A stretch of 64,000 nucleotides of DNA from a candidate division WWE3 bacterium (lineage in GTDB: Bacteria; Patescibacteriota; WWE3; UBA101185; UBA10185), in contig JBPOHV010000001.1 in the NCBI GenBank assembly GCA_052035175.1, positions 459,338 through 523,337 on the forward strand, written 5' to 3'. Both the position numbers and the translations under genes were made by a program. Shown here piece by piece: positions 21,978-56,477 of this stretch. The notes beneath the pieces were generated by a model. That model made no database searches, was not told the DNA's origin, and worked only from the letters and a program-made list of their open reading frames with translations. Positions within the stretch are counted from its first letter, which is position 1, and each line of letters opens with the position of its first letter.

Positions 21978-22795
21978 AATATTGATCTTTCTATTATTTG
22001 TTTTTTTACAAATTTCTTAATAAACTTTCTAAACTTTATTACAGATGGAGATATTGTCCATAAGACTTCATTTATCCCGTGCGAACTATCTATTCCCACT
22101 CTTGGAATAGTTAGTAAGTCAGTGTTGGATGTTAGCGCCGCGTCATCCATACTAAATGCCGCTGTATACCCAGCTGATCTAATATATTTCAACACGTCGC
22201 TTGTATAATTTCCCTTTGGATAAGCAAAATAGTCTATGTTTATACCTAGGTCCGCCTGAAGCTTTTCTTTTGCTGTGATTACCTCTTCTTTTATCTGTGC
22301 TTTTGAAATACCAGAAAAGTTGATATGAGTCAAACTATGAGCCCCTACAGACCAGCCATTTCTATATAGCATTTTAATGTCATCGATAGATAAAAAGTCT
22401 TTTTTTGTATTCAAAGCTAGTTCGCCAAAATTATAATTTTCAGTATCAGCTATTACAAATATGCATGGTTTTATTTTCAATTGTTCCAAAAATTGCTCCG
22501 TTCGCAATATGTTTTTATATCCGTCGTCAAACGTTAGAACTACAGATTTTGTCATCGGCTTATTTGTTTGGAGATTTTCTAGCAGTTCGTTTACAGTTAT
22601 GAAGTTATATCCGTGCATTAAAAGTTTATTTATGTGTAATATGAATAGTTCTGGTTTTGTACTAAATCTCCATGCATCATTTGAAATACTGTGGTAACAC
22701 AAAACAACTGCGCTATTCTTTGTCTGCAGTATGTTGTCGATACTAAATAACGTAAAATAAATTATTTTTCTAATTAGTATAAAGAAGTTTTTCAT
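21974..22795 (-). CDS. Polysaccharide deacetylase (NodB homology domain, CE4) with an N-terminal membrane anchor (ORF-track start 22831)
   Basis: VVLTFDDGYKN (the TFDDG motif) and WSVGAHSLTHINFS (the His motif). Confidence 0.75.
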   Translation of the reverse strand: MKNFFILIRKIIYFTLFSIDNILQTKNSAVVLCYHSISNDAWRFSTKPELFILHINKLLMHGYNFITVNELLENLQTNKPMTKSVVLTFDDGYKNILRTEQFLEQLKIKPCIFVIADTENYNFGELALNTKKDFLSIDDIKMLYRNGWSVGAHSLTHINFSGISKAQIKEEVITAKEKLQADLGINIDYFAYPKGNYTSDVLKYIRSAGYTAAFSMDDAALTSNTDLLTIPRVGIDSSHGINEVLWTISPSVIKFRKFIKKFVKKQIIERSIL

Positions 22796-26221: not shown

Positions 26222-26222
26222 A

Positions 26223-40980: not shown

Positions 40981-41886
40981 CTATTTCTTCTTTGACTTTC
41001 GCTCCTTTGCAATATCCTCGACAAAAAACTTGTTATACGTTTTAAAACTGCAGTTCAATATCTTGTATTGCTTAAGTCTGGTGGCAAAGTACAGATAAAA
41101 TGTAAACGCGGTAGCTAGAACTAAATCGATCCTATCAGGGTTTTTATCAAGCAATAATGACTCTTCCCCAGCGGTATCCTTTACCCAAAAATGCTGCAAA
41201 CCAGTAATGGGCAAATGGGTATATTCTGACAAATATCTATATACAAGTGTGTACATATGCTCCACACCACCGTTTTTAGTTTTCTGGCGTTTTTTTAATC
41301 TCTTGTCTACGCGTGATGCGCGATCGTATAGACTACCCCAAACCTTTCTAAACTCATCTTTGTTTTCATATGAAATATTTAGGGAGTCTTTGTACTTTTC
41401 AAGCTCTTTTAATGGGAGTTCTCTCATTTTATCCAGGATACTATCAGGAAACGTAGAAGGTCTTAGGTGGGGATATTTACTGTAGACACTTTGTAGCTCG
41501 TTCACTACGGTTACCTTATAGTAACTGCCCTCAATTACATAATGATATAGTGGATTATTGTTAGGTGACCCTAAAATGTAATGTGAGTTGATCCATGTTT
41601 CTGATATGCTCCTTAGTATTACGATGGCAGCATCCGGTCTACTCTGTTTACAAAGTTCAAATATAGCCTCTGTATAGGAGTTAATTGCGGCGAACGCCGA
41701 CAGTACATAATATTGTTTTGGCGATAGTTCGCTTTTAACAATTGTTTTTTTGACAAGTTCTTCTTTTGTGTAATTTATAAGCTCTGCTAGCGTATTTAAG
41801 ATTTTTTGATTTTCTTCACTTAATTTTGGCAACTCATTCATACAAGGATTATAGCTTTTATTACTATTGTTATATAATCGAAGCAT
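40981..41886 (-). CDS. Hypothetical protein (element cargo)
   Basis: Intact 301-aa ORF. Lys-rich C-terminus. Confidence 0.5.
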   Translation of the reverse strand: MLRLYNNSNKSYNPCMNELPKLSEENQKILNTLAELINYTKEELVKKTIVKSELSPKQYYVLSAFAAINSYTEAIFELCKQSRPDAAIVILRSISETWINSHYILGSPNNNPLYHYVIEGSYYKVTVVNELQSVYSKYPHLRPSTFPDSILDKMRELPLKELEKYKDSLNISYENKDEFRKVWGSLYDRASRVDKRLKKRQKTKNGGVEHMYTLVYRYLSEYTHLPITGLQHFWVKDTAGEESLLLDKNPDRIDLVLATAFTFYLYFATRLKQYKILNCSFKTYNKFFVEDIAKERKSKKK

Positions 41887-41888
41887 AA

Positions 41889-41981
41889 CTTAGCCGGTCA
41901 CTATGTTTTGAACGACACTAAATGTGTCTTGAACCCAAGAAGGGGCTACCTTTTTATTGGGTTCAAGGCTGACCGGCTAAG
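41889..41981 (+). repeat. Nested inverted-repeat element: a 12-bp perfect IR (cttagccggtca / tgaccggctaag) enclosing a 5-bp hairpin and an 11-bp perfect IR (cttgaacccaa / ttgggttcaag)
   Basis: Read directly from the sequence. It folds as a three-way junction if transcribed. Confidence 0.45.
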
Positions 41982-42008
41982 GACTACGAAAGGTAGTCCC
42001 TTTTTTAT
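41981..42008 (+). terminator. Intrinsic terminator-like hairpin plus T-tract immediately after the nested IR element
   Basis: ggactac gaaag gtagtcc cttttttatgg. Confidence 0.5.
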
Positions 42009-42034
42009 GGTATTAATTATGGGTAATTTCTAAT

Positions 42035-42373
42035 ATGTATATACTTTTGATTATATTTACAGTCTACTTAGCCAAGAAGTATTTTGAACTAAGGGAAGGC
42101 TATGCAGATCTATTTAAGGCAGATGGATTTATGACTGCGCGGCTCACAGAAGAGGTTGGTATCCGGCGTGTGGTTGAAATGTCCTGTGACTATATATGCA
42201 CCTTATCCGGTGCAGAAAAAGAACGAGCTGTACGGAACTTGAACCAGAGATTTGGTATTGCGATTAAGCTTAACTCAGATGGGAGCGTTACACGGGAGAC
42301 TGTAAACAAAATAGCGGAAATTTTTAGTGCAAGAAATCCAAGATTACCTATAGACAATGCTACTGAAAATTAA
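42035..42373 (+). CDS. Hypothetical small protein (element cargo)
   Basis: Intact 112-aa ORF with an N-terminal hydrophobic segment. Confidence 0.4.
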   Translation: MYILLIIFTVYLAKKYFELREGYADLFKADGFMTARLTEEVGIRRVVEMSCDYICTLSGAEKERAVRNLNQRFGIAIKLNSDGSVTRETVNKIAEIFSARNPRLPIDNATEN

Positions 42374-42465
42374 GATAGGAGGGGGGTACCTTTGCAGTTG
42401 TCCTGTTTGTAAATAGTTATGGCAAACAGACCTTGTACAATTTTGTATCAAATTTTTTGATATTA

Positions 42466-42804
42466 CTACTCCCGGCTGTATTTATACAGATCAATTATTT
42501 CCTGAGGTACCTCTTCATATTTTGAGTAAAGAGCCTCAATTTTAGTTTGTATAACTGCCTGTTCTTTGAACAAGTTAGCTACGGCAGCATAGTCTTTTTC
42601 TAACAAAGCTTTGTTTTCTTCGCGGCATAAGTTGTACATTTGGTTGAAGTCAGAGCCCATAGTACCCATATCAGTACCTATTTCGTAAAGTTTATCGTTT
42701 TGCGTTTGTAGCTCTCTTATAAGTTTTTCTTTTTGAAACGCATTTATACCAAGACCAACAACTAACATTGTGAAAAGTATTGTGACCGCTTTACTCTTAC
42801 TCAT
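42466..42804 (-). CDS. Hypothetical membrane-anchored coiled-coil protein (ORF-track start 42948; MSKSK start at 42804 is likely)
   Basis: TM helix AVTILFTMLVVGLGINAF followed by a helical region. Confidence 0.4.
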   Translation of the reverse strand: MSKSKAVTILFTMLVVGLGINAFQKEKLIRELQTQNDKLYEIGTDMGTMGSDFNQMYNLCREENKALLEKDYAAVANLFKEQAVIQTKIEALYSKYEEVPQEIIDLYKYSRE

Positions 42805-42889
42805 GTTTCTGATCGTAGCACTTCCCCCACCCGGAAACAATAAATTAGCTATACCTCGTCTATAAAACAAATAGTGGTAAAATGACCTC

Positions 42890-43927
42890 ATGAACATATT
42901 TTTGGCGCCTCGTTCAAACGAAACATCATATAAAAACTTTTTGAGCACTATTGAAAGTGGTGTTGACTACTCAATAATTGAACCTCATCTAGACGAACAA
43001 GGAAAACAACTATTGGCCTCCGAAGATAAAATCTTTGCATGGGGTACTAAAGACTCTAAAAAAAGTTCATGGGAGAAGCTATTACCAGGTGATGTAGTGT
43101 TATTTTACAAGGGGAGAGAAGGCGAAGAACGCGAAGGCAAGCTTGTTTATGCAGGCAGATTACTATACAAACAAAACAGTAAGGCGTTGGGCACCTCTTT
43201 ATGGCCACCTAAAACCGGAGAAGAGCCTTGGACATGTATTTTCTTTTTAAACGATCTTAAACCAGTTTATATACCAATAACCGACATAGCGGATTTTGCA
43301 GGTTACAGTAGAAATCTTATTGTTCAAGGTTTTATGCCTATTAATGAGGATGGTGTAAATGCTATTTTGGCAAAGTTTGGAGATGTTGATAAATTTATTA
43401 AACATTACTCAGCGGATGCCCCAGTAAGTGCGAACGATTTGGAAGAAGAAGAAAACCACATTAGTGCTCATTCTGAAGCACAACTTCTATTACTGAAAAT
43501 AGGTACATTACTTGGGTTTGATACTTTTTGTCCTGATAAAGGTGCGGAGGCATACGGGGAAAAGTTAATCGACTATATTTCTTTACGAGAAGTCCCTAAG
43601 AGGTTTCTTGGTGAGGATATTTTAAAACTAGTCACTCAAATAGATGTAATTTGGTTTAAAGACGAGGTTCCAGTCGCAGCATTTGAAGTAGAACACAGCA
43701 CAAAGATTTTAAGTGGCATGCAGCGGCTGTGCCAGCTTAGTCCACTATCGACTAGGCTATACATAGTAGCCTCGACTAAGGATTATCATTTGTACGAAAA
43801 ATTTATTAATACAGACCCATATTATAAAAATAAAGGCTCTTTTAGATTTAGAAGCTACAAACAACTAGAAAGCTATTTTAAGTCAGTATCTGAGTTCACG
43901 GCCATACGTGACGTATTTATGGAGTAA
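42890..43927 (+). CDS. PUA/EVE-like domain fused to a PD-(D/E)xK-like nuclease domain; a candidate modification-dependent (Type IV-like) restriction endonuclease
   Basis: The N-terminal KIFAWGTKDSKKSSWEKLLPGDVVLFYKG...KLVYAGRLLYK fits the PUA-like EVE pattern (W...GD.v.FY). The C-terminal HSEAQLLLLKIG...IDVIWFKDEVPVAAFEVEHSTKI has E, then D, then the E.E..K spacing of restriction-endonuclease-fold proteins. Confidence 0.45.
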   Translation: MNIFLAPRSNETSYKNFLSTIESGVDYSIIEPHLDEQGKQLLASEDKIFAWGTKDSKKSSWEKLLPGDVVLFYKGREGEEREGKLVYAGRLLYKQNSKALGTSLWPPKTGEEPWTCIFFLNDLKPVYIPITDIADFAGYSRNLIVQGFMPINEDGVNAILAKFGDVDKFIKHYSADAPVSANDLEEEENHISAHSEAQLLLLKIGTLLGFDTFCPDKGAEAYGEKLIDYISLREVPKRFLGEDILKLVTQIDVIWFKDEVPVAAFEVEHSTKILSGMQRLCQLSPLSTRLYIVASTKDYHLYEKFINTDPYYKNKGSFRFRSYKQLESYFKSVSEFTAIRDVFME

Positions 43928-43947
43928 ATTACATTGGATATGAACAT

Positions 43948-45408
43948 ATGTCTAAAGTAGGTAGAAATGACAAATGTCGATGTGGTTCTGGGAAGAAATA
44001 TAAATACTGTTGCGGCATTGATGGTGCACCAAAACTCCCAACAAATGTTAATAGACCCATAAGAGATAGAAATTTGATGATGATGCATGCAGTTGATGAT
44101 ATTTTCAAGTTTGATAAAAAAACTACATGGGATGATTTTCGAAAAAATATCAATGATGAACAAGTAAGAGAGTTTTATAGTTTTATGGATTGGCTGTGGC
44201 CGCTTGAAACTAATGTGGAAGCACTCTTACCTAAACCGTCAGATAAGCTTCGCGGCTTATACATTGGTGATATTAAGCCAGACAAAATTAGTACAAATAT
44301 ACTGCGCTACAGTTTATACACTGATGAAATTGTTGTTGTTAATCCATTTCCACATCCAAGAGCAATGTCCCCAGATTACAATCCGATTTTAAACCCCGGT
44401 CAATATAAACAAGATACATTGCAGATGATTTTTTTTGTAATGTCCTTATACAATTGGGTAGGTAAAGGTATTGTTCATTTAGTCCCTAACCCTATGGATT
44501 TCAATTATAAATTGCGTGATTCGTTCTTTTCTTCTGCTGAAGCACGGTGGAAAGATATCACTCCCGAAGATATGGAAAGCATATTAAGTGAAGAGGAAAA
44601 AAAGGAACTTGAAGAAGAAGGTAAGGATATGATTTTGAACACAATATCTCGTATGCCAGTAGATGCCCAAAAGGAGTTTATAAAACGACATCTACCTTCG
44701 ATTTCAGATACTGAAATGAACGCTCAAATCGACTTTATAAAGAGACAACGTAAAGCTAATGTATTATGGTTAGATCAAGATATGCCGGCAAACACGCCAG
44801 AACTTAAGGCTATGAGGTTAGGTGGCAATTTAGAACTAGGTTTGTATCTTAGTCAGTTAACAGGGTCCTATATGTATACAAATCGTAAATCCCAATGGAA
44901 CGAAATCTTATCGGTGCAGGTCAATAGCAATGATGAACAAGATATTTGGTCACCACTTACCAATGCGTTTCAATCGCTAGATTTCCAGTTTTTAGACAAT
45001 GTAAATTATGCTTTTATAGATAGATTGCAGGAAGAACAACGGCTTGAAAGTTTTAGAAACTACTTGCGTCGTGTGTGGGAAAGCATTAATAGTCCCACTC
45101 AAGCGTCAGAGGGTACTGTGCGCGAGTTTAAGGATGAACTTAAAGAGCAATACGCTATTGCAAAAGAGGATTGGAAGAAAATAGACATTACATTGAGAGA
45201 TTGGTTACTGAAAAAAAGCATACTCAACTCTGGCGCTGTTGCAGGAGCAAGTCAAATTCTTACAGGAAACATTAATTTGATAGCTCCAATGCTTGGGTTC
45301 TGCCTAGATGGTGTTAACCAGCTGCTTCAAGCAAATGATAAAAGAAAAGAGTTTAAGACAAAAGTACCCTTATCTGTATTTATTGATTTGGAAAATCATA
45401 GGCCATAA
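43948..45408 (+). CDS. SEC-C-motif (CxCGSGKKYKxCC zinc-binding) protein; the ~450-aa remainder has unknown function
   Basis: N-terminal KCRCGSGKKYKYCCG. It starts 20 nt after the nuclease-like gene. Confidence 0.5.
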   Translation: MSKVGRNDKCRCGSGKKYKYCCGIDGAPKLPTNVNRPIRDRNLMMMHAVDDIFKFDKKTTWDDFRKNINDEQVREFYSFMDWLWPLETNVEALLPKPSDKLRGLYIGDIKPDKISTNILRYSLYTDEIVVVNPFPHPRAMSPDYNPILNPGQYKQDTLQMIFFVMSLYNWVGKGIVHLVPNPMDFNYKLRDSFFSSAEARWKDITPEDMESILSEEEKKELEEEGKDMILNTISRMPVDAQKEFIKRHLPSISDTEMNAQIDFIKRQRKANVLWLDQDMPANTPELKAMRLGGNLELGLYLSQLTGSYMYTNRKSQWNEILSVQVNSNDEQDIWSPLTNAFQSLDFQFLDNVNYAFIDRLQEEQRLESFRNYLRRVWESINSPTQASEGTVREFKDELKEQYAIAKEDWKKIDITLRDWLLKKSILNSGAVAGASQILTGNINLIAPMLGFCLDGVNQLLQANDKRKEFKTKVPLSVFIDLENHRP

Positions 45409-45418
45409 ACACTTGATT

Positions 45419-45802
45419 ATGCCCAAGATACTTCGCACACCCAAAAACAAGTATGGCTTAAGTATAAAGCAGCGTATGGTGATAGAGGATATAGTATCTG
45501 ATATCAAACATAACAGACCGTTTAACCCCGTAACATCACATAAAAAATACTACAATGCCAAAAATAAGTTGAGTTTATCAGTTATAACTCATGAAAACTT
45601 AAATAGACCTAACTTTAAAGCAGCTCTTTTTGAGGCTTTGGAGTATGAAGGTGTATTAGGAGTATCGGGAAATGCACCACATGTTCTCATTTCGGGTTTA
45701 AACGCTTATCAAATTATAAATGGCGAAAAAGTACCGGACTATAAAACACGGCTAAAATATATCCAAGAAATAAATAAAATAACCGGTGTTTATCCAAAAT
45801 AA
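45419..45802 (+). CDS. Hypothetical small basic protein immediately upstream of the recombinase (ORF-track start 45308 overlaps the previous gene)
   Basis: 127 aa from MPKILRTPKNK. No motif. Confidence 0.4.
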   Translation: MPKILRTPKNKYGLSIKQRMVIEDIVSDIKHNRPFNPVTSHKKYYNAKNKLSLSVITHENLNRPNFKAALFEALEYEGVLGVSGNAPHVLISGLNAYQIINGEKVPDYKTRLKYIQEINKITGVYPK

Positions 45803-45816
45803 GCTATAATTACCTT

Positions 45817-45885
45817 GTGCTCATCTATATGTTTGTAAGCAGAAATGACCGTCTTAGTCATCTATAAAAATATGGATGAGCACAC
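45817..45885. promoter_or_regulatory. Imperfect 14-bp inverted repeat (gtgctcatctatat / atatggatgagcac) with a central small hairpin, 20 bp upstream of the recombinase start
   Basis: Read from the sequence. A candidate operator or recombination site. Confidence 0.3.
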
Positions 45886-45903
45886 TAGGGCGGTCTTTTT
45901 TGT

Positions 45904-47616
45904 ATGAAAAACACACTTGAAGGTAAAAACGCAGTAATAATAGCTAGAGCATCAACCACAAAACAATTTGATGCTGGAGATACTCTGGATCACCAAATAA
46001 ATCAATGTGAAATATATATTAAGAAAATGGGTATGCACCTAATTAAAGCGTTTACGTTAGTTGAGTCAGGTAGAAATGAGGAAAGGGAGTTTTTCACGGG
46101 TATATTAAACTACTGTTTAAATCCTAAAAACAGGGTTCAAGCAGTTGTTTTTAAAGACATATCCAGATTTACCAGGCAAGGAAGCAATACCTATACAAAT
46201 CTGAAGCAACAGTTATCTCGTGCCAATATACGGTTAGTAGATACTATGGGGATAATACAAGAAGAAGAAAACATTCTCGCTCACTTAAATGTTGTTTTTG
46301 ATTGGAGTCTTCGTTCACCGTCCGAAAGAACGGAGATAATGGAAGCTGAGGAAGCTCGTAATGAAGTAAAAAATATATTAAGCAGGACTATTGGCGCGGA
46401 AATCCAATATGTACAAGATCCCGCTAGCTACTCTGTTCGTCAACCTGAGTTTGGCTATAAGAACATTAAAACAGACGTTGATGGGAAAAAACGAACTATT
46501 AGAGCACCTGATGAAGCAGAAGCTCATTGGGTAAGGGAAATGTTTAGATTACGAGCAGAAGGTATATTAAGTGATGAAGAAATTGCACAAGACCTAAATA
46601 ATAGGGGTTTTGTTACGAGGACATTTAATAGAAGGGATAAGGAAACTAAAAAGATTGTAGGTAAGTCCGGTGGCAAGAAGTTAACTGCGAAAACCTTGAA
46701 AAAGTACATTCACAAAACAGTTTATGCCGGAGTTGTACAGGAAACTTGGGGAGGAACAACACTTTTAACTGTAAAATCAAATTTGTGGGAGGGACTAGTT
46801 ACAATCGAGACATTTAATAAAGCTAACAAAGGAAAGGTTTACATTGAAGTTCGGGATGATAGAACAGCGCATATCATGTACAACGTTAAAGATAAAAGGC
46901 GCACTCGTAGTAAAAATAACGCTTTGTTTCCATATAAAAACTATGTTTTATGTCCTATATGTAAGCGCACTCTCATGGGTAGTGCTTCTACGGGGAAGCT
47001 AGGTGGGAAGTATCCCTACTATCATTGTGAACGCAACCACAAAAGATTTAGTGTTAAAACAAGCGATATGGACAAAACAATTGAAAACTTTGTCGCTAGC
47101 CTAAAGTTTAAGGAAAGCTTTGCCAACGATTTTAGACTTGTGGTCAGGGATTTGTATCAACAGGAAAAGAAAAGGCTTCTAGAAAACACCGTAGAGGCAT
47201 CAAACCTTTTAGTTGAGCTAAAATCGCAGCAGGATCTTCTAATGGATAACCTTGTCGTGACCAAGTCCGCTTTAGTACGAGCTGAGTTGGAGAAGAAGTA
47301 CGAAGAGCTTGAACTAGATATTGCGCTAGCCATAGATTCCAGAAATAAATCTGAAGCAAAAGAGCTAGATCTTTACTATTTCGAAAATCAACTTATAAAG
47401 CTAATGGAAAACCCGAGGAAATTGTTGTCACAAGGCGCTGAAACAGTTGGTATAGGTAATATGTTTAGTAGGTTCTTTAGTGAGCCTCCCACATACGAAG
47501 ATTTAGTTAAGGGAACCCCAAAATTAACGCCTATTTTCGAGTTATCTAGAAATCAAGAAGTATCAAAGGATTTAATGGTGACCCTACGGGGAATCGAACC
47601 CCGGTTATCAGGATGA
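45904..47616 (+). CDS. Large serine recombinase (resolvase/invertase-type catalytic domain, recombinase domain, zinc ribbon, coiled coil)
   Basis: The catalytic N-terminus AVIIARASTTKQ is the Y.RVST..Q family signature. The zinc ribbon is CPICKRT...YYHCERNH, followed by a long helical C-terminus. The final 13 codons read through the tRNA-Glu T-arm and acceptor-stem sequence, giving GIEPRLSG. Confidence 0.85.
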   Translation: MKNTLEGKNAVIIARASTTKQFDAGDTLDHQINQCEIYIKKMGMHLIKAFTLVESGRNEEREFFTGILNYCLNPKNRVQAVVFKDISRFTRQGSNTYTNLKQQLSRANIRLVDTMGIIQEEENILAHLNVVFDWSLRSPSERTEIMEAEEARNEVKNILSRTIGAEIQYVQDPASYSVRQPEFGYKNIKTDVDGKKRTIRAPDEAEAHWVREMFRLRAEGILSDEEIAQDLNNRGFVTRTFNRRDKETKKIVGKSGGKKLTAKTLKKYIHKTVYAGVVQETWGGTTLLTVKSNLWEGLVTIETFNKANKGKVYIEVRDDRTAHIMYNVKDKRRTRSKNNALFPYKNYVLCPICKRTLMGSASTGKLGGKYPYYHCERNHKRFSVKTSDMDKTIENFVASLKFKESFANDFRLVVRDLYQQEKKRLLENTVEASNLLVELKSQQDLLMDNLVVTKSALVRAELEKKYEELELDIALAIDSRNKSEAKELDLYYFENQLIKLMENPRKLLSQGAETVGIGNMFSRFFSEPPTYEDLVKGTPKLTPIFELSRNQEVSKDLMVTLRGIEPRLSG

Positions 47617-47650
47617 AAACCTGATGTCCTGACCATTAGACGATAGGGCC
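47576..47650 (-). tRNA. tRNA-Glu (anticodon UUC) with encoded CCA
   Basis: The minus strand reads GGCCCTA TC GTCT AATGGTCA GGAC A TCAGG TTTTCAT CCTGA TAAC CGGGG TTCGATT CCCCG TAGGGTC A CCA. The cloverleaf folds cleanly. Confidence 0.85.
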
Positions 47651-47729: not shown

Positions 47730-49844
47730 TTATTCGTATCTAAGAGCATCTAGCGCAGAGATCTTTTTTGACCTTTTTGCAGGGTAAATACCAGTAAATA
47801 CACCTACAAAAAGTGAAAGTAAAAGAATGACGAATATAAATGATCCCGGGATTTTTGATACATCGATGTATCCTTGACCTTTGAACATTGAGAATGATGA
47901 AAGCAGTAAGCCTACGCCTTTGCCACCCAACCAGCCTAATAGTAGTCCACTAAGGCCTGCACAAAAACCCATAATCATAGACTCAGTTAAGAAAAGTTCT
48001 TGTACTTCAGAAGTTTTCATTCCCATTGCTTTCATCAGGCCTACTTCACGCGATCTTTCCAAAAGCGATACGGTCAATGTATTAAACATTCCCAACGAAG
48101 CAACCGCCAAAGCGATCATACCCATAACTCCTAATACCAATCTTATAGTTCCAAACAAGCTGTTTATTTGTGTGACAGTATCAACTACCGAAGTTGTATT
48201 ATAACCAATAGACTCAATCTTTTTACGAATGTCTGCCAAAGATTCTGGTGTTTGTGACATTACTTTGAATTGCGAAAAATTAACTATGCCGAGAGACCTC
48301 AAATCTATGAAAGGTACATAAAAAACAGGTGAAGTGTCGTCTGGAGTTACTCCTACGATAGTGTACTCGCTTGGTTCAGATTCGACTCTTTTAGAAGAGC
48401 CTTCTATCAAATAGCTTGGTAATACAAATGAAGCCATAAAAGTTTTGCCTACAGCATTTTTTTCATCAAGTCCCAAGATTTTTATCATGGCTCGGTTTAC
48501 TACTGCTTGGCGAATCGCTTTGTCTGACAGCATAACTTTGGTAAGTTCATTTGCCTCGGTTTCAGTTTCATCAGATAACGCAACCCATTCAGAGTTGGGG
48601 TCAATTTCTAATGCACTCAATGGATCTACTTCGGCGTCAGGTTGTAAAGTTGTTGTTGTAGCTTCTGTTGTCGAAGTTTCAGTATCACGTGTATCTGTTT
48701 CAGCTAATACGTCTGTATCAATTGCATAATTTGCAGTGTTTACAATTATATTTAACATCGAAAAATACCCACTTCTTTTAGATTGTTCATTTGTTACTTC
48801 GTCAATAATTGGCTCATATCCATTCTCAGTTTCTTGCCACAACAAAACGTCCGATCTTATCCATTCACCAAGATTTTCTCCGCTAGACGTTGTTTGAGAG
48901 CTACCTTTGTCACTCCCTTCATACTCAGTTCCCAAGTATATATCTCCAGTTTGTTTATATTCTGTATGCTTTGTATAACCTAAGATTTCATTTTCGGCAC
49001 CAGGCCCACCTCGAACTCTTATCCACGTGTCGGGTAAAATATCGTACTCGAGTGTACCAACTTTATCACCTTTATCTACAGTGTTTGATACAGATATACC
49101 AGCTACACTTCCGTAATCTTTGGTAGTGTAAGATAAAGGTTTTTCTTCAGACAAAAATGAAGTTTCATTGCTATCAAATATTTTACCTTCGGTTGGTTTG
49201 ATTGCAGATCTTTCCAAATAACCAGAAGTCACTCCGTACACAGCCATATCAGTTATAGAATTTTGAAAATTTACTCTACCTACTACTGCGATTAATGGAT
49301 AAACTTCAAAAACATTTGGAAATTGTTTGACGTCAGACAATGTTTTGTCGTCTATACGTACTTTAGAGCCTGGTTGCGTTGCAACATCTGCTTGCTTAAG
49401 CTCGTCAAGCCTAGCTACACGCGATATTACCAATTCTTGCAAACCGTATCCGAGCGAGACCAAAAAAACAATTGCTCCTATACCTATCGCAACACCACCG
49501 ATAGTAATAAGTGTTCTTGTTTTTTTTACTTGCATATTTCGAATAGCAAGTTTGATAAGATCAATTTTTGGAATCGTCGCATCATCAGATGCGTCTAGTT
49601 TTTTTTCTAATTTACCGAATAGTCTATAAAATTGCGCCAACACTGTAGACGTAACAGAGTAGGGGAGTATTTTTGTAAGTCTTTTGATTAATAAAGTATC
49701 TATTACATAAAATAAAACCAAGACATTAAAAGATATAAAATCTTTGAAGATGTAATTTAAAAAGCCTGGTAACTGCTTGAGACTTTGGGCCAAGGATTTA
49801 ATTTTTTCTTTGATTTTTGGTAATGCTGCTTTTATTTTATCCAT
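47730..49844 (-). CDS. MacB/FtsX-like ABC transporter permease with a large extracytoplasmic domain
   Basis: An N-terminal TM, a ~450-aa extracytoplasmic region containing a Thr/Asp/Glu-rich insertion, and a C-terminal FtsX 3-TM domain (GLMKAMGMKTSEV...). Its start overlaps the ATPase stop by 8 nt. Confidence 0.75.
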   Translation of the reverse strand: MDKIKAALPKIKEKIKSLAQSLKQLPGFLNYIFKDFISFNVLVLFYVIDTLLIKRLTKILPYSVTSTVLAQFYRLFGKLEKKLDASDDATIPKIDLIKLAIRNMQVKKTRTLITIGGVAIGIGAIVFLVSLGYGLQELVISRVARLDELKQADVATQPGSKVRIDDKTLSDVKQFPNVFEVYPLIAVVGRVNFQNSITDMAVYGVTSGYLERSAIKPTEGKIFDSNETSFLSEEKPLSYTTKDYGSVAGISVSNTVDKGDKVGTLEYDILPDTWIRVRGGPGAENEILGYTKHTEYKQTGDIYLGTEYEGSDKGSSQTTSSGENLGEWIRSDVLLWQETENGYEPIIDEVTNEQSKRSGYFSMLNIIVNTANYAIDTDVLAETDTRDTETSTTEATTTTLQPDAEVDPLSALEIDPNSEWVALSDETETEANELTKVMLSDKAIRQAVVNRAMIKILGLDEKNAVGKTFMASFVLPSYLIEGSSKRVESEPSEYTIVGVTPDDTSPVFYVPFIDLRSLGIVNFSQFKVMSQTPESLADIRKKIESIGYNTTSVVDTVTQINSLFGTIRLVLGVMGMIALAVASLGMFNTLTVSLLERSREVGLMKAMGMKTSEVQELFLTESMIMGFCAGLSGLLLGWLGGKGVGLLLSSFSMFKGQGYIDVSKIPGSFIFVILLLSLFVGVFTGIYPAKRSKKISALDALRYE

Positions 49845-50631
49845 TTATATCTACCCCGCGTTTTAATTTGACGCCTTTTTGAATTTCTTCTTTCTCTTTA
49901 CCTCTTGTTATGTCCAAAACTTTTCCGTCTTGTATTCTGACTGCTGATTTTCCATATCTAAGATATTCTAGGTCGTGCGTAACCATTAATATTGTACGTC
50001 CTGTATTATTTAAATCTACTAGTATTTGTAATAAGTTTTGACCAGACTCGTAATCAAGGTTTCCTGTAGGTTCATCGGCGATAATTAATTCTGGGTCGGT
50101 AACCAAAGCTCGTGCGAGTGCAACCTTTTGCTGTTGACCTCCGGATAGCTCTGTAGGACGGTAGCTCGCCCAGTTTTGCATACCCATACTTTCTAGGGAT
50201 TTCCAAGCTTTTTGCAAAGCAGTTACGCGGTCTACTCCTAATAAAGATAAAGGAAATGCAATATTCTCAATTACTGAAAGCGATTTGACCCAGTTGGCTT
50301 GTTGATAAACCATACCTATATGTTTTTTTCTAAATCCAGATCTATCATCGTCAGTTGCTAATGCGTACAAATCTGTATCCAAACAAAAAACCTTCCCAGA
50401 TGTTGGTATTTCCAAACCTAGTAAGACGTGTAATAAAGTTGATTTACCAGATCCAGATGGACCAAGAATAATTGCAAAATCACCGCGAGGCACTTCAAAC
50501 GAAATGCCTTTTAGTACTTCGATAGTTTGTGTACCTACGATAAAAGACTTGGTTATCTCTGTTGCTTTTAAAACAATTGCGGGTGCCGCTGGTGCTGCTG
50601 CCTCAGCAGTTTGTGCTGGAATATCACTCAT
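49837..50631 (-). CDS. ABC transporter ATP-binding protein (MacB/LolD/FtsE-like)
   Basis: Walker A GPSGSGKST, signature LSGGQQQKVALARAL, Walker B IIADEPTGNLD, H-loop VTHD. Confidence 0.9.
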   Translation of the reverse strand: MSDIPAQTAEAAAPAAPAIVLKATEITKSFIVGTQTIEVLKGISFEVPRGDFAIILGPSGSGKSTLLHVLLGLEIPTSGKVFCLDTDLYALATDDDRSGFRKKHIGMVYQQANWVKSLSVIENIAFPLSLLGVDRVTALQKAWKSLESMGMQNWASYRPTELSGGQQQKVALARALVTDPELIIADEPTGNLDYESGQNLLQILVDLNNTGRTILMVTHDLEYLRYGKSAVRIQDGKVLDITRGKEKEEIQKGVKLKRGVDING

Positions 50632-53600
50632 TTTTTAAGACCTCCCAAGAATCCAAACACTTCACCCAAATTTGTAATTACCAAGTTCAATGCGCTGTCA
50701 GAAGATTTTGGCGTAATGCTTACAGTGTCTATAGATTTTGCTTCATTGGTTGCTTTGTCTTTAGAAAGAGCTCGTAAATGATAAACTTTTGAAGTATTTA
50801 AACCTGAAATTACCACGACGTGGTTGTAAGTTAGGTTTGAGTCTTCTTGCGTCTTTTGAGAATAGGTTGTTCCTGTACCTTCGCCAAATTCCACTTGAGA
50901 TGTTCCGGGTTCGTCTGTATCCCAACTTACTACCAATTGCGCTGTAGCTACTTGTTCACTTGTATTAACGATATTTCCTTCGACTCGTAAGTTTGAAATC
51001 AAAGGAGGTCTCGTATCTGTTGCAGTTGTTAATTGTTGTGGATCGCTCGAGGCCTGATTCCCTGCTTTGTCTATACCTTTTACTACCATTGTATAAGGTG
51101 TTTCTGGGAATAATCCTTTTATTAATAACCTATGTACACCTTTAACGAGCTTAACATTAACTTCGTCTCTTGCTTGTGATGCATCGCTGCTTGGGTAATA
51201 CGTAATTATTGATGAAACTTCTGTATTAGTTGACCATGATACTAAAACTGCTGGTTGTGCACTACCTTTGACTTGTTGGATTTTGACATTATCTATTTTT
51301 GGTCGTGGTAAAGTTTCAAACGACAAAATACTTCCTTCATACTCTTCGCCTTCTGTATCAAAAGTGTTTATTTTATAATAGTATTTTGTACCATCTTCCA
51401 AGCTATCTATTGTTGTATTATAAGTTGTTTCGCTTGTAGAAGTTGAAAGTTCAACAGAACCTCCAAATGCAGAAGTTTTGCCATAATAAATTTTAACTTT
51501 TGAAGAACTATTTACGGTATATTGCAGAATTACACTGTTAATGCCAACTGTTTTGGCTGTTGGATCAGTTACAGTCGGCGCTGGTGCAGTCTCAAAAGTA
51601 AATTCATCTGTTAGTCCAGTATTTCCATCTTCATCAGTCCACTTTGCTACTGCATAATAATTTGTTCCTGGTGAAAGATTTGTAAGCGTTATTTCGTGTG
51701 CAGTTACTTGAGTTGAGTTTGAAGGCTCTTCGTCAAAATAATCACCCTCACTCGTACCAAATTGTATTTTTGAATCGCTGGCTCGATCTGTGGACCATGT
51801 TATTGTAGCTTGCTTTGTTGTTATGCCAGTTACTTCTGGTTCACTTTCTAGCGCTGCAGCTTCTGTAAATTTACCTGTAGGCAATAAGGAAACAGCTGCA
51901 GTAGATGCGCCGCAGTTGCTTACGCTATCGCAAGCTTTCACTTTATAATAGTATGTTTCTTGTTCTAGTGATGTATCGATATACGCTGATCCTGTTGTAG
52001 ATGCTAATAATGTATATGTACTATCGTCAGAAGATCTATATATTTCATATTCTTCTACGCCAGAACCTACATCAGTAGGAGCTGTCCATGATAATGCCAA
52101 CCTCCATGCTGATGTACTTTTGATAGAAACGTCTGAAATTTCTAGATTTAACGGAATGCCTGGTGCAGATGTATTGGCTGTGAAACTTACACTAGTGTAA
52201 GATCCATAATTTATAGTTCCTCCTACATCATCTCCGTTTTTTGCAACTAAATAAAAAGTATTCAAACCTACTTGTGTAGCAAATGAGCTCGCCGAAACAG
52301 ATGTAGCTCCAGCGCTTGTATAAGTACATGTATCTACAGAAGGTAGTGTATTTACTGTATAACAATATGTCAGGTCAGATGAGTCACCGCTATACGTTGC
52401 AGGAATTTGCCAAGAAAACGCAAAAGAGTTAGTTGTATTTGTGCTAGGTGTAGCAGTCAAAAATTGTGGTGCCGATGGTCCATCTCCTCCATAATAGTAT
52501 GTAGCTTGTAATGGTGTTGCCGATACATTACCCGCTGTATCAATTACTCTTAAATAAAATGTATTTGCGCCTGTTTGATATGCAGCAGAAGGGATATCAA
52601 TACTAGTAGAAGCAGTAGTCGACGACCAATCGCTTAGATCTCCACTTGGTGCACCAGTTTTATATTGATATCCTGCTAAACCTGATCCGGTATCTGATGC
52701 AATTCCATCCCCAGACGAGGGCCATGAAAATGTAAACGAATTTGTAGATGCATAACCAGAAGGTGTAACAGTAACTGTACTTGGGTTGCTTGGATTTGTA
52801 TTATCAAACTTATATATAAAAGGTGCGTACACTGTGCTTAAGTTTTGTGCATTATCTTTGGCTTGAATTCGCAAATAATACGTCGATCCGCTCGACAACC
52901 CTGAAGCTGAGTATGATGTACCCACTTGAAATACTCCTGCTGTAGATGGTGTTGCAGTATTATCTGTTCCAAAATAAACATAATAACCAGCAACTCCAGC
53001 TTCTGTGTCTGATGCGCCGCTCCAAGAGAAATACGGTGTTGTATACGTATACCAAGTGTTTGTTGTCAAAGATGTTCCTCCGCCAGAAACATTTAGAGCT
53101 GTCAAACTACTTGGTGGGTTAGGATTTGTTGTATCTGCTTCAGCTTCAACTGTTATAGAATTTAGTGTTACAGCTTGTGTACCATCTCCATCCAAGATAG
53201 CTTGCCATTTAATACCGCTAGAGCTTATAGAAAAAGTGTCTATATTGGTATCAATCGTTGAACTAGCGTTGGCTTGTGCGGTAGACGCAGATGTAGCCCA
53301 AGCTCCGCCATCCCAATATTTCCAAGTAGTGCCGCCATCGTTAGACAACCGATAAGTTATTGCTCCGCCATTTGCAGTTTCTGAAACTACAAATCCGGTA
53401 TATGTATATATATCTTCAGTAAACACGGCTGTCGCATTTTGTATAGTTTGTGCCGATGTAGAATAAGCTGTTGTATTAAATGATGGTAGTGCAGTATTGC
53501 TTATTCTCACTTCGTCTATATTGCCATTAAAAAATCCTTGAGGACTACCCTGACTAGTGCTTCCATAAGTTGTTCCTAGTAAAACTGCTTTTGCGGTATT

Positions 53601-56477
53601 TGGTATTGATAACGAGGCACTTCCAGAGTTATCCAAAGTTCCGTCAATATAAATTTTCATAGTAGAACCATCGTATGTAGCAGCTATATGATGCCAGCTA
53701 GTATTTTGTGACGTAGTTGCCGATTGCAAATACCCATTGTTTCCATAAGACCAAATAGCAGCATCTACATTTGCACTTTCACCTAATCCAGCATAAAGTT
53801 TGCCTTTGTAAACACTTAAAGAGTGTACGCTTTCAGATGCATTAATATCCCAGCTAGAATTTAAGGCATCGCCTCCGACTTGTGCCCATGTTGAACCATC
53901 GTATTTCCATACTTCTGATTCTCCTGCTGTAGTACCAAGGCCAGCATAAATGTCCCCATTATAAGAAGCTAGTGCTCTGAGTCTTTCATAAGTTCCTGCT
54001 GTCCAACTTCCTCCAATATCGTCGCCACCTATTTGTGTCCAAGCAGCGCCATCCCATTTCCATAAATCAGCATCACCTGCTGTTGTACCTAATCCTGCAT
54101 ATATTTCACTGTTATGTACAATCAGTGTTTCTACTATTTCATGTAAAGATGCCCATCCAGAATTTGTGCTGTCGCCTCCTATTTTAGTCCATGCAGTGCC
54201 ATTAAAACTCCAAACCTCAGCATCCCCAGCAGTGTTACCAATGCCTGCGTAAACAACCCCATTATAAGAGGTCATACTATACACAGCTTCAAAATTTGTT
54301 GTCCAACCAGAGTTAAGACTGTCTCCTCCAACTTTTTCCCACACTGTCCCATTCCATCGCCACACTTCTGCATCATTTGCAGACAACCCCAAACCTGCGT
54401 ATAAATATCCTCCTGAAACTGTCATGCTTTGCACTGTTTCAAAACCGGTATTCCAACCCGAGTTTAAATTGTCACCTCCAACTTGTGTCCAAGTTGTACC
54501 GTTGTAGCTCCAAACTTCCGCGTCGTTGGCGGTTGATCCAATACCCACATATAAATCTCCATTATAGCTTCGCATAGAGAATACGCCTTCATATGTAGCA
54601 GCTGACCAGCTACTATTTACTCCTTGCCCACCAACAATTGCCCAAGAACTACCGTCGTATTCCCATACTAATGCATTGCCTGCAACGGTATACCCGGTAC
54701 CAGCATACAGTTTACCGTTGTGAGTTTTCATAACTTCTACACTTTGCAAATTATAAAAGCCCCAACTTTTGTTAATATAATTTCCGCCTATTCTGGTCCA
54801 AGCAGATCCATTCCAAGTCCAGAATTCTCCTGAAGCTGATGCTGCTGTAGTTCCTGTATATAAAGTCCCGCCAGTATAAAGAAGCGTATTTATTATTGTA
54901 TGTGTATTTGTAAATCCAGAATTTATAGCATCTCCACCAATTTTGGTCCAAGCAGAACCATTCCAACGCCATACTTCATTGTCACCTGCTGTTGTACCAA
55001 GCCCTGCGTAAATATTAGTACCATCACTCTCTAATGCGTAAACACCTTCATAATTTGTAGTCCACCCAGAATTTGTGCTGTCGCCTCCTATTTTGGTCCA
55101 GCTGCCACCTGTATACTGCCAAACTTCTGCATCATTTGCCGAATTTCCTAGGCCTGCATACAAACTAGTACCAGCATATTCCATTGTAAGGACTTGTTCA
55201 TAATCAGTATTCCAGCTAGAGTTTGTCCCATCTCCGCCAATTTTGGTCCAAGCAGATCCATTCCAGCTCCAAATCTCTGCGTCTGTCGTACTGCTTCCTA
55301 AGGCTGCATATACTGTAGATCCGTCATTAACCAGTTTCATTACTGTCTCAAAATTTGTAGTCCATCCTGAGTTTATACTATCTCCACCTATTTTGGTCCA
55401 AGCAGATCCATTCCAGCTCCAAACCTCCGCATCATTAGCACTACTACCAGTACCAGCGTACAAAGTTGAACCCATATATGTAAGAGTAGCAATATATTCA
55501 TAAGTTCCTACTGCCCAGCTTGAATTGATGGCATCGCCACCAATTTTAGTCCAACTGTTACAACCAGTACTTGTATTGCAATACCAAACTTCAGCATCTC
55601 CTGCGGTTATACCAATACCTATATATAAGTTTGTACCATCTGTTGCCATAGCAGAAACAGTCTCAAACGTTTGAGCTGCCCAGCTTGAATTAATGGCATC
55701 GCCACCCACTTGTTCCCAAATAGTCCCATCCCATTTCCAGACTTCTGCATCACCTGCAGCATTTCCTAAGCCAACATAAATGTTGCTCCCAACAACAATA
55801 GATGAATTTACATCCAGTTTTCCGTTTAAATCCCAACTTTCGTTTATATCAAGGCCAGCTCTTTGAGTCCAATCTGTTTCTGTGGTATTAACTAACTCAT
55901 ACGTCACTTTACCTGTTTCATTGTCGTAATAAAGTTTGTAATCACCTTTATCGATAATACCTTGTTCATATTCGGTACTTCCTGCAGAAAATGCTGTTCC
56001 AAACTTTGTCCAAGCTTCCAAAGTATTTGATTGGCTAAGTGATAAAGATGAGCTATCTGGTATAGATATTTTTTTTGTAAGTCCATCCAATGAAAATGCG
56101 TTGTTTAGATTACCTGTAGTCCAAGAAGCAATTGATGCAGTACCGTCGTTATTATTTGCAGATGCATCGTCTACAGTTGTTCCGCTAGACTCATCTAAGT
56201 GCCACAGACCCATTGTATTAGCGTCAGTTGTATAATTTTGTACTTTAAGTCTCGCAGTATTGCTACTTACTTCTATTGCTGCAGAGTCAGATAATGTGTA
56301 ATCACCAGAGCTAGCAAATGTCCAAGCTTGGCTTACATATCCAGCAGCTAATGCTTTTAAATAGGTTTGAGTTAATACAACAGTAAAACATATTAAAACC
56401 AAAGATATTACAACGTAAGTAATTTTTTTCTTTGTATTGAAAAACTTATAAAAGATTAATGGCAGCTTTTGTATCAT
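50628..56477 (-). CDS. Giant (1949-aa) cell-surface protein: N-terminal anchor, LamG/ConA-like domain, ~13 Kelch-like beta-propeller repeats, a second LamG-like domain, multiple FN3-like domains
   Basis: N-terminal TM. Repeats have the form DAEVW.WNGSAWTKIGGD..NSGW...YE.V.....G..LYAG.G. FN3-like segments include YYLRIQAKDNAQN. Its stop overlaps the ABC ATPase start by 4 nt. Confidence 0.7.
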   Translation of the reverse strand: MIQKLPLIFYKFFNTKKKITYVVISLVLICFTVVLTQTYLKALAAGYVSQAWTFASSGDYTLSDSAAIEVSSNTARLKVQNYTTDANTMGLWHLDESSGTTVDDASANNNDGTASIASWTTGNLNNAFSLDGLTKKISIPDSSSLSLSQSNTLEAWTKFGTAFSAGSTEYEQGIIDKGDYKLYYDNETGKVTYELVNTTETDWTQRAGLDINESWDLNGKLDVNSSIVVGSNIYVGLGNAAGDAEVWKWDGTIWEQVGGDAINSSWAAQTFETVSAMATDGTNLYIGIGITAGDAEVWYCNTSTGCNSWTKIGGDAINSSWAVGTYEYIATLTYMGSTLYAGTGSSANDAEVWSWNGSAWTKIGGDSINSGWTTNFETVMKLVNDGSTVYAALGSSTTDAEIWSWNGSAWTKIGGDGTNSSWNTDYEQVLTMEYAGTSLYAGLGNSANDAEVWQYTGGSWTKIGGDSTNSGWTTNYEGVYALESDGTNIYAGLGTTAGDNEVWRWNGSAWTKIGGDAINSGFTNTHTIINTLLYTGGTLYTGTTAASASGEFWTWNGSAWTRIGGNYINKSWGFYNLQSVEVMKTHNGKLYAGTGYTVAGNALVWEYDGSSWAIVGGQGVNSSWSAATYEGVFSMRSYNGDLYVGIGSTANDAEVWSYNGTTWTQVGGDNLNSGWNTGFETVQSMTVSGGYLYAGLGLSANDAEVWRWNGTVWEKVGGDSLNSGWTTNFEAVYSMTSYNGVVYAGIGNTAGDAEVWSFNGTAWTKIGGDSTNSGWASLHEIVETLIVHNSEIYAGLGTTAGDADLWKWDGAAWTQIGGDDIGGSWTAGTYERLRALASYNGDIYAGLGTTAGESEVWKYDGSTWAQVGGDALNSSWDINASESVHSLSVYKGKLYAGLGESANVDAAIWSYGNNGYLQSATTSQNTSWHHIAATYDGSTMKIYIDGTLDNSGSASLSIPNTAKAVLLGTTYGSTSQGSPQGFFNGNIDEVRISNTALPSFNTTAYSTSAQTIQNATAVFTEDIYTYTGFVVSETANGGAITYRLSNDGGTTWKYWDGGAWATSASTAQANASSTIDTNIDTFSISSSGIKWQAILDGDGTQAVTLNSITVEAEADTTNPNPPSSLTALNVSGGGTSLTTNTWYTYTTPYFSWSGASDTEAGVAGYYVYFGTDNTATPSTAGVFQVGTSYSASGLSSGSTYYLRIQAKDNAQNLSTVYAPFIYKFDNTNPSNPSTVTVTPSGYASTNSFTFSWPSSGDGIASDTGSGLAGYQYKTGAPSGDLSDWSSTTASTSIDIPSAAYQTGANTFYLRVIDTAGNVSATPLQATYYYGGDGPSAPQFLTATPSTNTTNSFAFSWQIPATYSGDSSDLTYCYTVNTLPSVDTCTYTSAGATSVSASSFATQVGLNTFYLVAKNGDDVGGTINYGSYTSVSFTANTSAPGIPLNLEISDVSIKSTSAWRLALSWTAPTDVGSGVEEYEIYRSSDDSTYTLLASTTGSAYIDTSLEQETYYYKVKACDSVSNCGASTAAVSLLPTGKFTEAAALESEPEVTGITTKQATITWSTDRASDSKIQFGTSEGDYFDEEPSNSTQVTAHEITLTNLSPGTNYYAVAKWTDEDGNTGLTDEFTFETAPAPTVTDPTAKTVGINSVILQYTVNSSSKVKIYYGKTSAFGGSVELSTSTSETTYNTTIDSLEDGTKYYYKINTFDTEGEEYEGSILSFETLPRPKIDNVKIQQVKGSAQPAVLVSWSTNTEVSSIITYYPSSDASQARDEVNVKLVKGVHRLLIKGLFPETPYTMVVKGIDKAGNQASSDPQQLTTATDTRPPLISNLRVEGNIVNTSEQVATAQLVVSWDTDEPGTSQVEFGEGTGTTYSQKTQEDSNLTYNHVVVISGLNTSKVYHLRALSKDKATNEAKSIDTVSITPKSSDSALNLVITNLGEVFGFLGGLKK
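53700..55800 (-). repeat. Tandem ~141-150-bp nucleotide repeats inside the giant gene; some copies are near-identical
   Basis: For example 55231-55277 versus 55381-55427 (tctcc.cc.attttggtccaagcagatccattccagctccaaa.ctc), with similar units near 54781, 54931 and 55078. Confidence 0.6.

Follow-up and report, generated by a model that had tools for sequence, protein, structure and literature searches.

A conserved three-gene module of Patescibacteria pairs a giant fibronectin type III surface protein with a MacB-type ABC transporter

Gene arrangement of the locus

The window analyzed here is a stretch of 64,000 nt from a candidate division WWE3 bacterium (GenBank assembly GCA_052035175.1, contig JBPOHV010000001.1, positions 459,338-523,337 of the forward strand) with a G+C content of ~36%. 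Positions 47730-56477 of the window hold three minus-strand open reading frames (ORFs), encoding a giant surface protein (1949 aa), an ATP-binding cassette (ABC) ATPase (264 aa), and a MacB/LolC-type permease (704 aa); the features of these genes are collected in Table 1. This three-gene module is conserved across Patescibacteria, the candidate phyla radiation (CPR), in unrelated genomic contexts. An earlier reading of the DNA letters without database searches, here called the sequence-only reading, had described the genes as a single operon on the basis of overlapping stop and start codons, and both overlaps were confirmed: the stop of the giant gene and the start of the ATPase gene share 4 nt (ATGA, 50628-50631), and at the next junction 8 nt (49837-49844) are common to the ATPase stop and the permease start. 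The two junctions are overlaps or gaps of <20 nt in most related loci, and because these are equally tight, the arrangement is not due to chance. Upstream of the giant gene are an AT-rich spacer of 214 nt and a divergent SBP_bac_5 gene. Scanning the operon for promoters and terminators was uninformative, with promoter-like sites fewer than in shuffled sequence.

Table 1. Features of the three-gene module in the window, and retroelement cassettes in five related loci. AF2, AlphaFold2; pLDDT, predicted local distance difference test; TM, transmembrane helix; DGR, diversity-generating retroelement.
Feature	Residues	Position	Strand	Basis
Giant surface protein gene, 1949 aa		50628..56477	minus	ORF; Pfam fn3, Pur_ac_phosph_N, Laminin_G
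Predicted N-terminal Sec-type signal or signal anchor	1-44	56346..56477	minus	Hydropathy; homologue N-termini
N-terminal half of split Laminin_G_3 (LamG)	~71-215	55833..56267	minus	Concatenated profile match
~14 tandem 50-aa Trp-rich repeats	~216-920	53718..55832	minus	Repeat register
C-terminal half of split LamG	~921-1005	53463..53717	minus	Laminin_G_3 positions 57-145 of 151, E 3.1e-18
Conserved core, 8-9 tandem FN3-like domains	1050-1925	50703..53330	minus	BLAST, AF2, Foldseek
C-terminal tail, SDSALNLVITNLGEVFGFLGGLKK, conserved amphipathic helix	1926-1949	50631..50702	minus	Alignment; AF2; hydrophobic moment
ABC ATPase gene, 264 aa		49837..50631	minus	ABC_tran 115 bits
MacB/LolC-type permease gene, 704 aa		47730..49844	minus	MacB_PCD + FtsX; AF2 pLDDT 78; Foldseek
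Permease N-terminal extension, helical hairpin	1-90	49575..49844	minus	Alignment, AF2
Conserved all-beta domain in extracytoplasmic domain	254-373	48726..49085	minus	pLDDT 86-91
Thr/Asp/Glu-rich linker	~376-431	48552..48719	minus	pLDDT <50; length and sequence vary in 32 homologues
TM2-TM4 of FtsX-type transmembrane domain	553-692	47769..48188	minus	Pfam FtsX, AF2 helices
DGR cassette to giant head, related loci		L005:2215-5698; L006:514-4411; L010:1191-5669; L028:1946-5613; L064:684-3382		

Conservation of the module among relatives

More than 700 homologues of the permease were found. Identity to the window permease is 46-59% among the best 120, of which every one with a named source comes from Patescibacteria (Daviesbacteria, Shapirobacteria, and others). 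When one genome per species in the Genome Taxonomy Database (GTDB) was scanned, at least 598 matching stretches were obtained, from which 80 loci were kept (numbered with the prefix L). The ORFs in these loci were compared with the three window proteins by BLAST, and 71 of the loci contained enough DNA to be informative. A giant homologue is encoded upstream of the ABC pair and on the same strand in 62 of these 71 loci and is adjacent in another arrangement or orientation in three more. It is absent from the remaining six, of which five do not come from CPR bacteria (Anaerolineae and relatives, Microbacterium). Inspection of five permease homologues on long contigs showed a giant FN3 protein of 1546-1969 aa directly upstream of each, with entirely different flanks in every case. 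The possibility that the ABC pair occupies its position irrespective of the giant gene, which the sequence-only reading had named as part of what would refute it, is therefore not what synteny reveals; with the giant gene upstream and the junctions short in most loci, the three genes behave as one conserved unit.

The partnership withstands several kinds of rearrangement. Ten loci (L010, L030, L043, L053, L055, L056, L058, L059, L065, and L068) have an ATPase-permease fusion, in another the ATPase has been relocated to the opposite strand upstream of the giant gene (L001:2228-3046), and GIY-YIG and DUF3800 genes are inserted among the three module genes in a third arrangement (L006:7955-9915). 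Some further observations concern individual loci. Two loci labelled Saccharibacteria (L077:2-9061 and L081:1-9083) encode two tandem giant paralogues before a single ATPase-permease pair. In L005, the permease gene is followed by conjugative or type IV secretion-like genes for TrbC, TrbL, a VirB4/TraG-like ATPase, and an M23 peptidase (L005:12205-17971), and a relaxase-like gene is present at the start of the locus. Many metagenome-assembled genome records that carry this CPR-type module (L011, L016-L019, L024-L026, L029, L033, and others) bear the titles 'uncultured Gammaproteobacteria', 'Bdellovibrionales', or 'Pseudomonadales'; such labels appear doubtful in view of the shared module and of permeases that are 41-49% identical to that of the window.

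The giant protein: signal, core, and tail

The giant protein of the window begins with a KKK sequence, a hydrophobic stretch of ~19 residues (core 19-37), and a KALA/AG site. The N-termini of its homologues likewise run from basic to hydrophobic, and many have AxA sites, consistent with Sec-type signals that would be cleaved. BLAST homology covers window residues ~1050-1949 in all loci and extends over the full length only in the closest dozen or so. These ~900 C-terminal residues are the sole part of the giant protein common to all family members, the shortest of which (~1000-1070 aa) are barely more than the signal and the core. Source annotations of the family are 'hypothetical', 'fibronectin type III domain-containing', 'DUF2341', and 'exoglucanase B precursor'. 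Core homologues are 44-68% identical, and when 46 loci are compared with the window, identity averages 44% for the core, against 41% for the permease and 51% for the ATPase. Judged from these identities, the core is conserved as strongly as the transporter, which is unusual for spacer domains.

An AF2 model was built for the conserved core, with the N-terminal 1050 residues outside it. The model (pLDDT 86, predicted template modelling score (pTM) 0.36) contains 8-9 FN3-like sandwiches with mutual orientations that are not fixed, and no long helices were found in the modelled core. A Foldseek search with this model returned FN3 arrays only, such as those of thick-filament proteins, ROS1, and cytokine receptors.

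The sequence-only reading had advised a search of both ends of the giant protein for a secretion signal. In addition to the Sec-type signal at the N-terminus, this search identified a conserved element at the C-terminus: 66 homologues, drawn from many lineages, retain both the last FN3 domain and the tail (ITPK..ALNLVITNL..FGFL). The terminal helix lies at residues 1931-1939, is modelled with low confidence, and is unpacked in the monomer; it is amphipathic, with a hydrophobic moment of 0.41 in the window protein and 0.4-0.6 overall. A search with the last 110 residues gave 2820 clusters at E-values up to 1e-10, a count inflated by generic FN3 proteins, and about one-third of the top 150 clusters have the match at their own extreme C-terminus. 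In many homologues the layout of the tail (ITPK..ALNLVITNL..FGFLGGLKK) resembles a C-terminal sorting signal, with a motif, a helix, and a basic tail, while Saccharibacteria-type homologues end directly after the helix and lack the basic tail. No sortase-like gene was seen within the module in the five loci for which gene tables were available.

Exchangeable heads and diversity-generating retroelements

The sequence-only reading had described the giant protein as a LamG, Kelch-propeller, and FN3 adhesin-like protein. The FN3 and LamG content was borne out, the latter as a single Laminin_G_3 domain interrupted by ~715 residues of 50-aa repeats. When residues 71-190 were joined to residues 906-1005, the match extended over Laminin_G_3 positions 4-145 of 151 (86 bits, E 3.2e-24), compared with 67 bits for the C-terminal part by itself. 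The 50-aa repeats matched neither Kelch or other propeller models in Pfam nor sequences in the PDB, and homology to Kelch or other propellers was rejected on these grounds. The repeats probably fold into two beta-propellers nested in the LamG domain. A Kelch propeller is plausible but unconfirmed in the window protein. The repeat region (54001-56000) has a local G+C content of 0.42 and a GC skew of -0.31, coinciding with the Gly/Trp/Ser-rich repeats. Heads differ among relatives and include LamG, DUF2341, Kelch (supported by Pfam), FG-GAP/VCBS, DUF1080, and FGE-sulfatase/C-type lectin domains.

In ten loci the giant gene adjoins a DGR reverse transcriptase. In five loci (L005, L006, L010, L028, and L064), a DGR cassette (bAvd and/or reverse transcriptase) immediately precedes the giant homologue, with a template repeat in the cassette and a variable repeat inside the giant head. 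The differences between the two repeats fall at template adenines in 16/16, 10/10, 4/4, 17/18, and 13/15 cases, respectively. The variable region ends with NIGFRCASD in L005 and L006 and with NVGFRCASD in L010, which we take to be the C-type-lectin signature of DGR targets. In three further loci (L053:2027-2590, L058:3741-4271, and L065:3192-3718) the target of the DGR is an independent small ORF (215-339 aa) that immediately precedes the giant gene; these loci have core-only giants (~1000 aa), a fused ATPase-permease, and a reverse transcriptase ORF on the opposite strand, an arrangement suggesting that the diversified head may be made as a polypeptide of its own. No reverse transcriptase was found within the window, the giant protein of which is not a DGR target. 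DGR-diversified C-type-lectin surface proteins of CPR bacteria were reportedly described by Paul and co-workers in 2017; the five giant relatives are similar to these, whereas the window head is of the LamG/repeat type. Because the retroelement mutates the head in five relatives, the N-terminal head is probably a ligand-binding module under diversifying selection, for which the support is indirect but strong.

The ABC ATPase and permease

The catalytic motifs of the ATPase are intact (Walker A, Q-loop, LSGGQ, LIIADE, and H-loop). Its best NCBIfam models are LolD, DarD, FtsE, and MacB, of which those of the LolD, FtsE, and MacB class all score below their equivalog cut-offs (e.g., 202 against a cut-off of 308 for LolD and 181 against 265 for FtsE). 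The permease matches the Pfam hidden Markov models (HMMs) for MacB_PCD (52.7 bits, residues 111-227) and FtsX (68 bits, residues 573-696), and it too falls short of the equivalog models: 35.5 bits for FtsX_Gpos (cut-off 225), 25.3 for FtsX_Gneg (cut-off 255), 60 for lolCE (cut-off 362), and 71 for the MacB equivalog (cut-off 966). Structure prediction of the permease, recommended by the sequence-only reading for the periplasmic domain, gave a MacB/LolC-type fold (pLDDT 78) with helices at residues 108-143, 553-606, 611-655, and 667-692 and an additional all-beta domain in the extracytoplasmic domain. The top Foldseek matches were MacB, LolCDE with bound lipoprotein, Spr0695, and YtrEF (E-values of 1e-17 to 1e-14), with HrtB also a neighbour; the isolated periplasmic domains of MacB, LolE, and YknZ were matched as well, and FtsX structures aligned over the transmembrane region only (~180 columns). 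The traits of the MacB or type VII superfamily are thus present, namely an FtsX-type transmembrane domain, an interrupted MacB_PCD domain, and a cognate ATPase, and the pair belongs to this broad superfamily only. Orthology to FtsEX or LolCDE, the outcome that the sequence-only reading had set against its own MacB-type assignment, was rejected on the curated HMM cut-offs and the fold.

The anatomy of the permease was derived from an alignment of 32 homologues and the AF2 model. The N-terminal extension contains one hydrophobic helix (residues 35-53) with basic residues to either side. From residue ~38 onward, the sequence, including this helix, is kept after the fused ATPase in L010, and since it is kept downstream of that domain, the extension is probably cytoplasmic or peripheral. 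Pairing of the helix with the tail of the giant protein was also considered and is unlikely, given the basic flanks and the position behind a cytoplasmic ATPase in L010. TM1 (residues 108-143) leads into the first half of a MacB-type extracytoplasmic domain, followed by a disordered loop in the AF2 model (residues 231-253) and by the all-beta domain, which carries a conserved W.RVR...GYTKR motif and matched no entry in Pfam and no PDB sequence. A Thr/Asp/Glu-rich segment comes next, then the second half of the extracytoplasmic domain, and finally TM2-TM4. Altogether the extracytoplasmic domain is of the MacB_PCD type and comprises ~430 residues, with a family-wide insertion of ~230 residues that contains the all-beta domain and the Thr/Asp/Glu linker. 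The sequence-only reading had singled out the Thr/Asp/Glu-rich insertion as an unusual feature; the segment is present, and its status as something specific did not hold, as it is a variable linker that is presumably disordered according to the model. Saccharibacteria-type permeases are short (~405-447 aa) and have neither the extension nor the insertion, and their loci keep the giant partner and its tail.

Comparison with known systems

MacAB-TolC, Spr0693-0695, YknXYZ, and YtrEF are the best structural and sequence matches and have the MacB_PCD and FtsX architecture and the ATPase class in common with the module; the ATPase-permease fusion of MacB is also matched, in the ten relatives listed above. 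The module differs from MacAB-TolC and the Gram-positive pumps in its ~230-residue insertion, in its giant FN3 partner of 1000-3000 aa or more, and in being essentially confined to Patescibacteria. Domains of membrane fusion proteins (MFPs) or outer-membrane factors (OMFs) were found neither in the giant protein, nor beside the window operon, nor in the gene lists of four out of five relatives; in the fifth, L007, a partial RND-MFP/YknX-type gene sits ~3 kb upstream of the giant gene, on the other strand and at the far end of the locus. It has to be asked whether the pair is itself an efflux or delivery pump that takes a small molecule, lipid, or peptide from the outer leaflet, as do MacAB, BceAB, and HrtBA, with the giant protein serving in place of an MFP as a conduit or scaffold for the substrate across the envelope, possibly to a bound host cell. 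The nearest solved relatives are such pumps, the Joint Genome Institute (JGI) names homologues antimicrobial-peptide transport permeases, and the order partner, ATPase, permease also occurs in Spr0693-0694-0695 and macA-macB. The giant protein, however, has no MFP-like hairpin, lipoyl, or beta-barrel domain, its tandem FN3 domains line up in the model as separate beads (pTM 0.36) that enclose no channel, and the DGR-diversified lectin heads point to binding and not to conduction. We consider a pump of this kind distinctly unlikely.

Giant RTX adhesins with type I secretion systems (T1SSs), such as LapA, SiiE, and MpIBP, resemble the module in that a repetitive adhesin is encoded beside an ABC system and in that a 'split' companion domain encloses the ligand-binding module, an architecture that Graham and co-workers are said to have described for these adhesins in 2024. 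The module differs in having a type VII ABC pair, a Sec signal, FN3 repeats in place of BIg or RTX repeats, and neither an MFP nor an outer-membrane protein, and no match to RTX or HlyD-type domains was obtained in the giant protein or the window. The sequence-only reading had suggested a dedicated export or processing system. Translational coupling and conserved synteny are compatible with T1SS-like transport of the 1949-aa protein across the cytoplasmic membrane by the MacB-type pump, but the giant protein has its own N-terminal Sec-type signal and no RTX or other C-terminal T1SS signal, and the permease has a four-helix FtsX-type transmembrane domain with no channel in the matched solved relatives. 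Such T1SS-like transport is barely credible, and because of the Sec-type signal and the MacB/LolC fold of the permease, the ABC pair is unlikely to move the giant protein across the membrane. The export half of the suggestion is not supported, given the Sec signals and AxA sites of the family, whereas processing or remodelling of a surface partner is a fair description of the likely function.

LolCDE has the same fold class as the pair, and LolCDE-lipoprotein complexes are among the top Foldseek matches. LolCDE acts after export, pulling the hydrophobic anchor of a protein out of the outer leaflet. Here, one permease gene is present per locus and not a LolC and LolE pair, and no lipobox was noticed on reading the giant N-terminus, for which no formal lipobox search was made; CPR envelopes are monoderm-like. 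A close rival to the reading that we favour below, if an unlikely one in our view, is a LolCDE-like, one-shot extraction after Sec export, in which the C-terminal helix or an uncleaved anchor would be held in the outer leaflet until the ABC pair captured the helix in its lateral TM1/TM2 cleft and, at the cost of ATP, expelled it, handing the protein to the wall or S-layer or releasing it. In keeping with this, the permease is structurally as near to lipoprotein-bound LolC/LolE as to MacB, the tail has a mean Kyte-Doolittle value of ~1.4 (calculated by hand) followed by Lys/Arg in many homologues, like a sorting signal, the helix is unpacked in the AF2 model, and substrate genes are commonly found beside dedicated machinery. 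The tail nevertheless includes Asn, Thr, and Glu/Gln residues that are conserved, and it is amphipathic and not membrane-spanning; its basic end is missing from Saccharibacteria-type homologues; the conservation of 900 residues to the same degree as the pump is more than a passive cargo needs; and no gene for a LolA-like acceptor or a protease was present in the module in the five loci with gene tables.

The remaining comparison is with FtsEX, which acts on PcsB in S. pneumoniae, EnvC in E. coli and Vibrio, and CwlO in B. subtilis, and which is likewise a type VII ABC system that transports nothing across the membrane. FtsEX holds a Sec-exported, anchorless partner on its extracytoplasmic domain via helices of the partner, and the ATP cycle switches the partner. 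The extracellular domain of FtsX comprises ~100 residues and lacks the Sabre subdomain, compared with ~430 residues and an extra beta domain here; in place of a coiled-coil hydrolase or activator, the partner here is a giant adhesin of FN3 domains that ends in a short helix; and the genes of the module are always adjacent. By analogy, the module would work most like FtsEX with PcsB or EnvC, yet it has the defining features of none of FtsEX, LolCDE, MacAB-TolC, or a T1SS.

Proposed mode of action

Permeases of the MacB superfamily have a four-helix transmembrane domain without a pore, and ATP-driven movement of the long TM1 and TM2 helices does work outside the membrane: LolCDE extracts lipoproteins, MacAB expels substrates from the periplasm, and FtsEX activates a bound partner (EnvC or PcsB). 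That these permeases act on substrates already outside the membrane was reportedly the conclusion of Crow and co-workers in 2017. We tentatively propose, with a probability of roughly 0.45, an envelope-spanning adhesin whose base the ABC pair either holds or actuates from the outer side of the membrane. The giant protein would be exported by Sec and consist of three parts, an exchangeable head, an FN3 stalk, and the C-terminal amphipathic helix. At its base, the stalk would dock via the last FN3 domain and terminal helix on the enlarged extracytoplasmic domain of the permease or in its lateral membrane cleft. The stalk, with 8-9 FN3 domains that may reach ~30 nm by our own estimate, would span the envelope and carry the head across the wall and S-layer. 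The binding and hydrolysis of ATP, relayed via the long TM1 and TM2 helices, could then change the state of the adhesin by deploying, tensioning, or releasing it, analogous to the manner in which FtsEX holds and drives PcsB or EnvC.

Several points weigh against this proposal. The contact between the giant protein and the permease, like the effect of the ATP cycle on the giant protein, is something that we infer. The identities of the permease and the giant core are correlated across loci with r = 0.43, a modest value that is confounded by shared descent. A Pfam-type search found no hydrolase or LytM domain in the giant protein, leaving nothing enzymatic for an FtsEX-like switch to obviously regulate. 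The hydrophobic region of the signal is long (~19-22 residues) and could be an uncleaved anchor, which would place the variable head, and not the conserved base, at the membrane. Finally, the pairing is not absolute: L072 has the ABC pair and no giant homologue, and Southlakia epibionticum has a short MacB-type pair, SEML1_0053/0054, which is a candidate orthologue with a tRNA-Ser gene upstream and no giant (PMC10633639).

These last cases bear on a further explanation, a conserved neighbourhood with no physical coupling, in which the pair would be a housekeeping envelope ABC system of CPR bacteria (FtsEX- or Lol-like, serving wall or lipid homeostasis) and the giant gene would merely be on the same promoter. 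MacB-type pairs without a giant do exist, in L072, in the non-CPR loci, and in Southlakia, where SEML1_0053/0054 scored just a growth defect in transposon sequencing (Tn-seq) (PMC10633639). Against it, adjacency is kept across many CPR lineages although the flanks have turned over completely and despite fusions, strand switches, and insertions, the FtsX and LolC/E equivalog models all fail by wide margins, and conservation is limited to the C-terminal side of the giant protein. A neighbourhood of this kind is accordingly, in our estimation, very unlikely. Two essential Southlakia genes, SEML1_0890/0891, encode small proteins unrelated to the module.

Other genes in the window

Downstream of the permease gene is a tRNA-Glu gene (47576..47650, minus strand), the 3' end of which is overlapped by a large serine recombinase gene (45904..47616, plus strand). 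The recombinase gene is preceded by DUF5677 and SEC-C-motif genes, and this region beside the operon (window 40981-47650) is probably an integrated element; an att-like repeat of the tRNA-Glu end was searched for near the recombinase island and none was found. Elsewhere (window 19317-28382 and 32514-36158) are a cluster of glycosyltransferase genes (GT2 and GT4) and a gene for a second large surface protein of 1214 aa, with a PQQ-type propeller and Big_7 Ig domains.

Implications

The literature on Patescibacteria/CPR in connection with FtsX, MacB, ABC, FN3, or DGR was searched and contained no description of the module or the pairing that we could find, and no link between DGR C-type-lectin targets and a MacB-type ABC pair was found either. 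A new CPR Pam pilus operon is unrelated to it. The evidence suggests that the module is an undescribed ATP-driven surface device and not an ordinary drug pump or a cell-division FtsEX. A more specific version, a CPR-specific surface machine in which a type VII ABC motor at the base mechanically drives the FN3 stalk of an adhesin whose head is exchangeable and in some cases retroelement-diversified, and in which cytoplasmic ATP hydrolysis controls attachment to, tension on, or release from the host cell that these episymbionts need, is speculative and, as a whole, unlikely on present grounds.

Patescibacteria account for a large share of bacterial diversity, and the cultivated members live attached to host cells. 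To our knowledge, very little is known of how they recognize and hold their hosts beyond type IV pili. Four traits nominate the module as an ATP-coupled device for recognizing hosts or particles: it is widespread, the partnership is conserved like the pump, heads are swapped between lineages, and in some lineages heads are hypermutated by DGRs. If this were true, the idea of 'mechanotransmission' developed for MacB, FtsEX, and Lol would extend to the control of an adhesin. For those few CPR strains that both have the module and are open to genetics, its three genes are a well-defined target for experiments.

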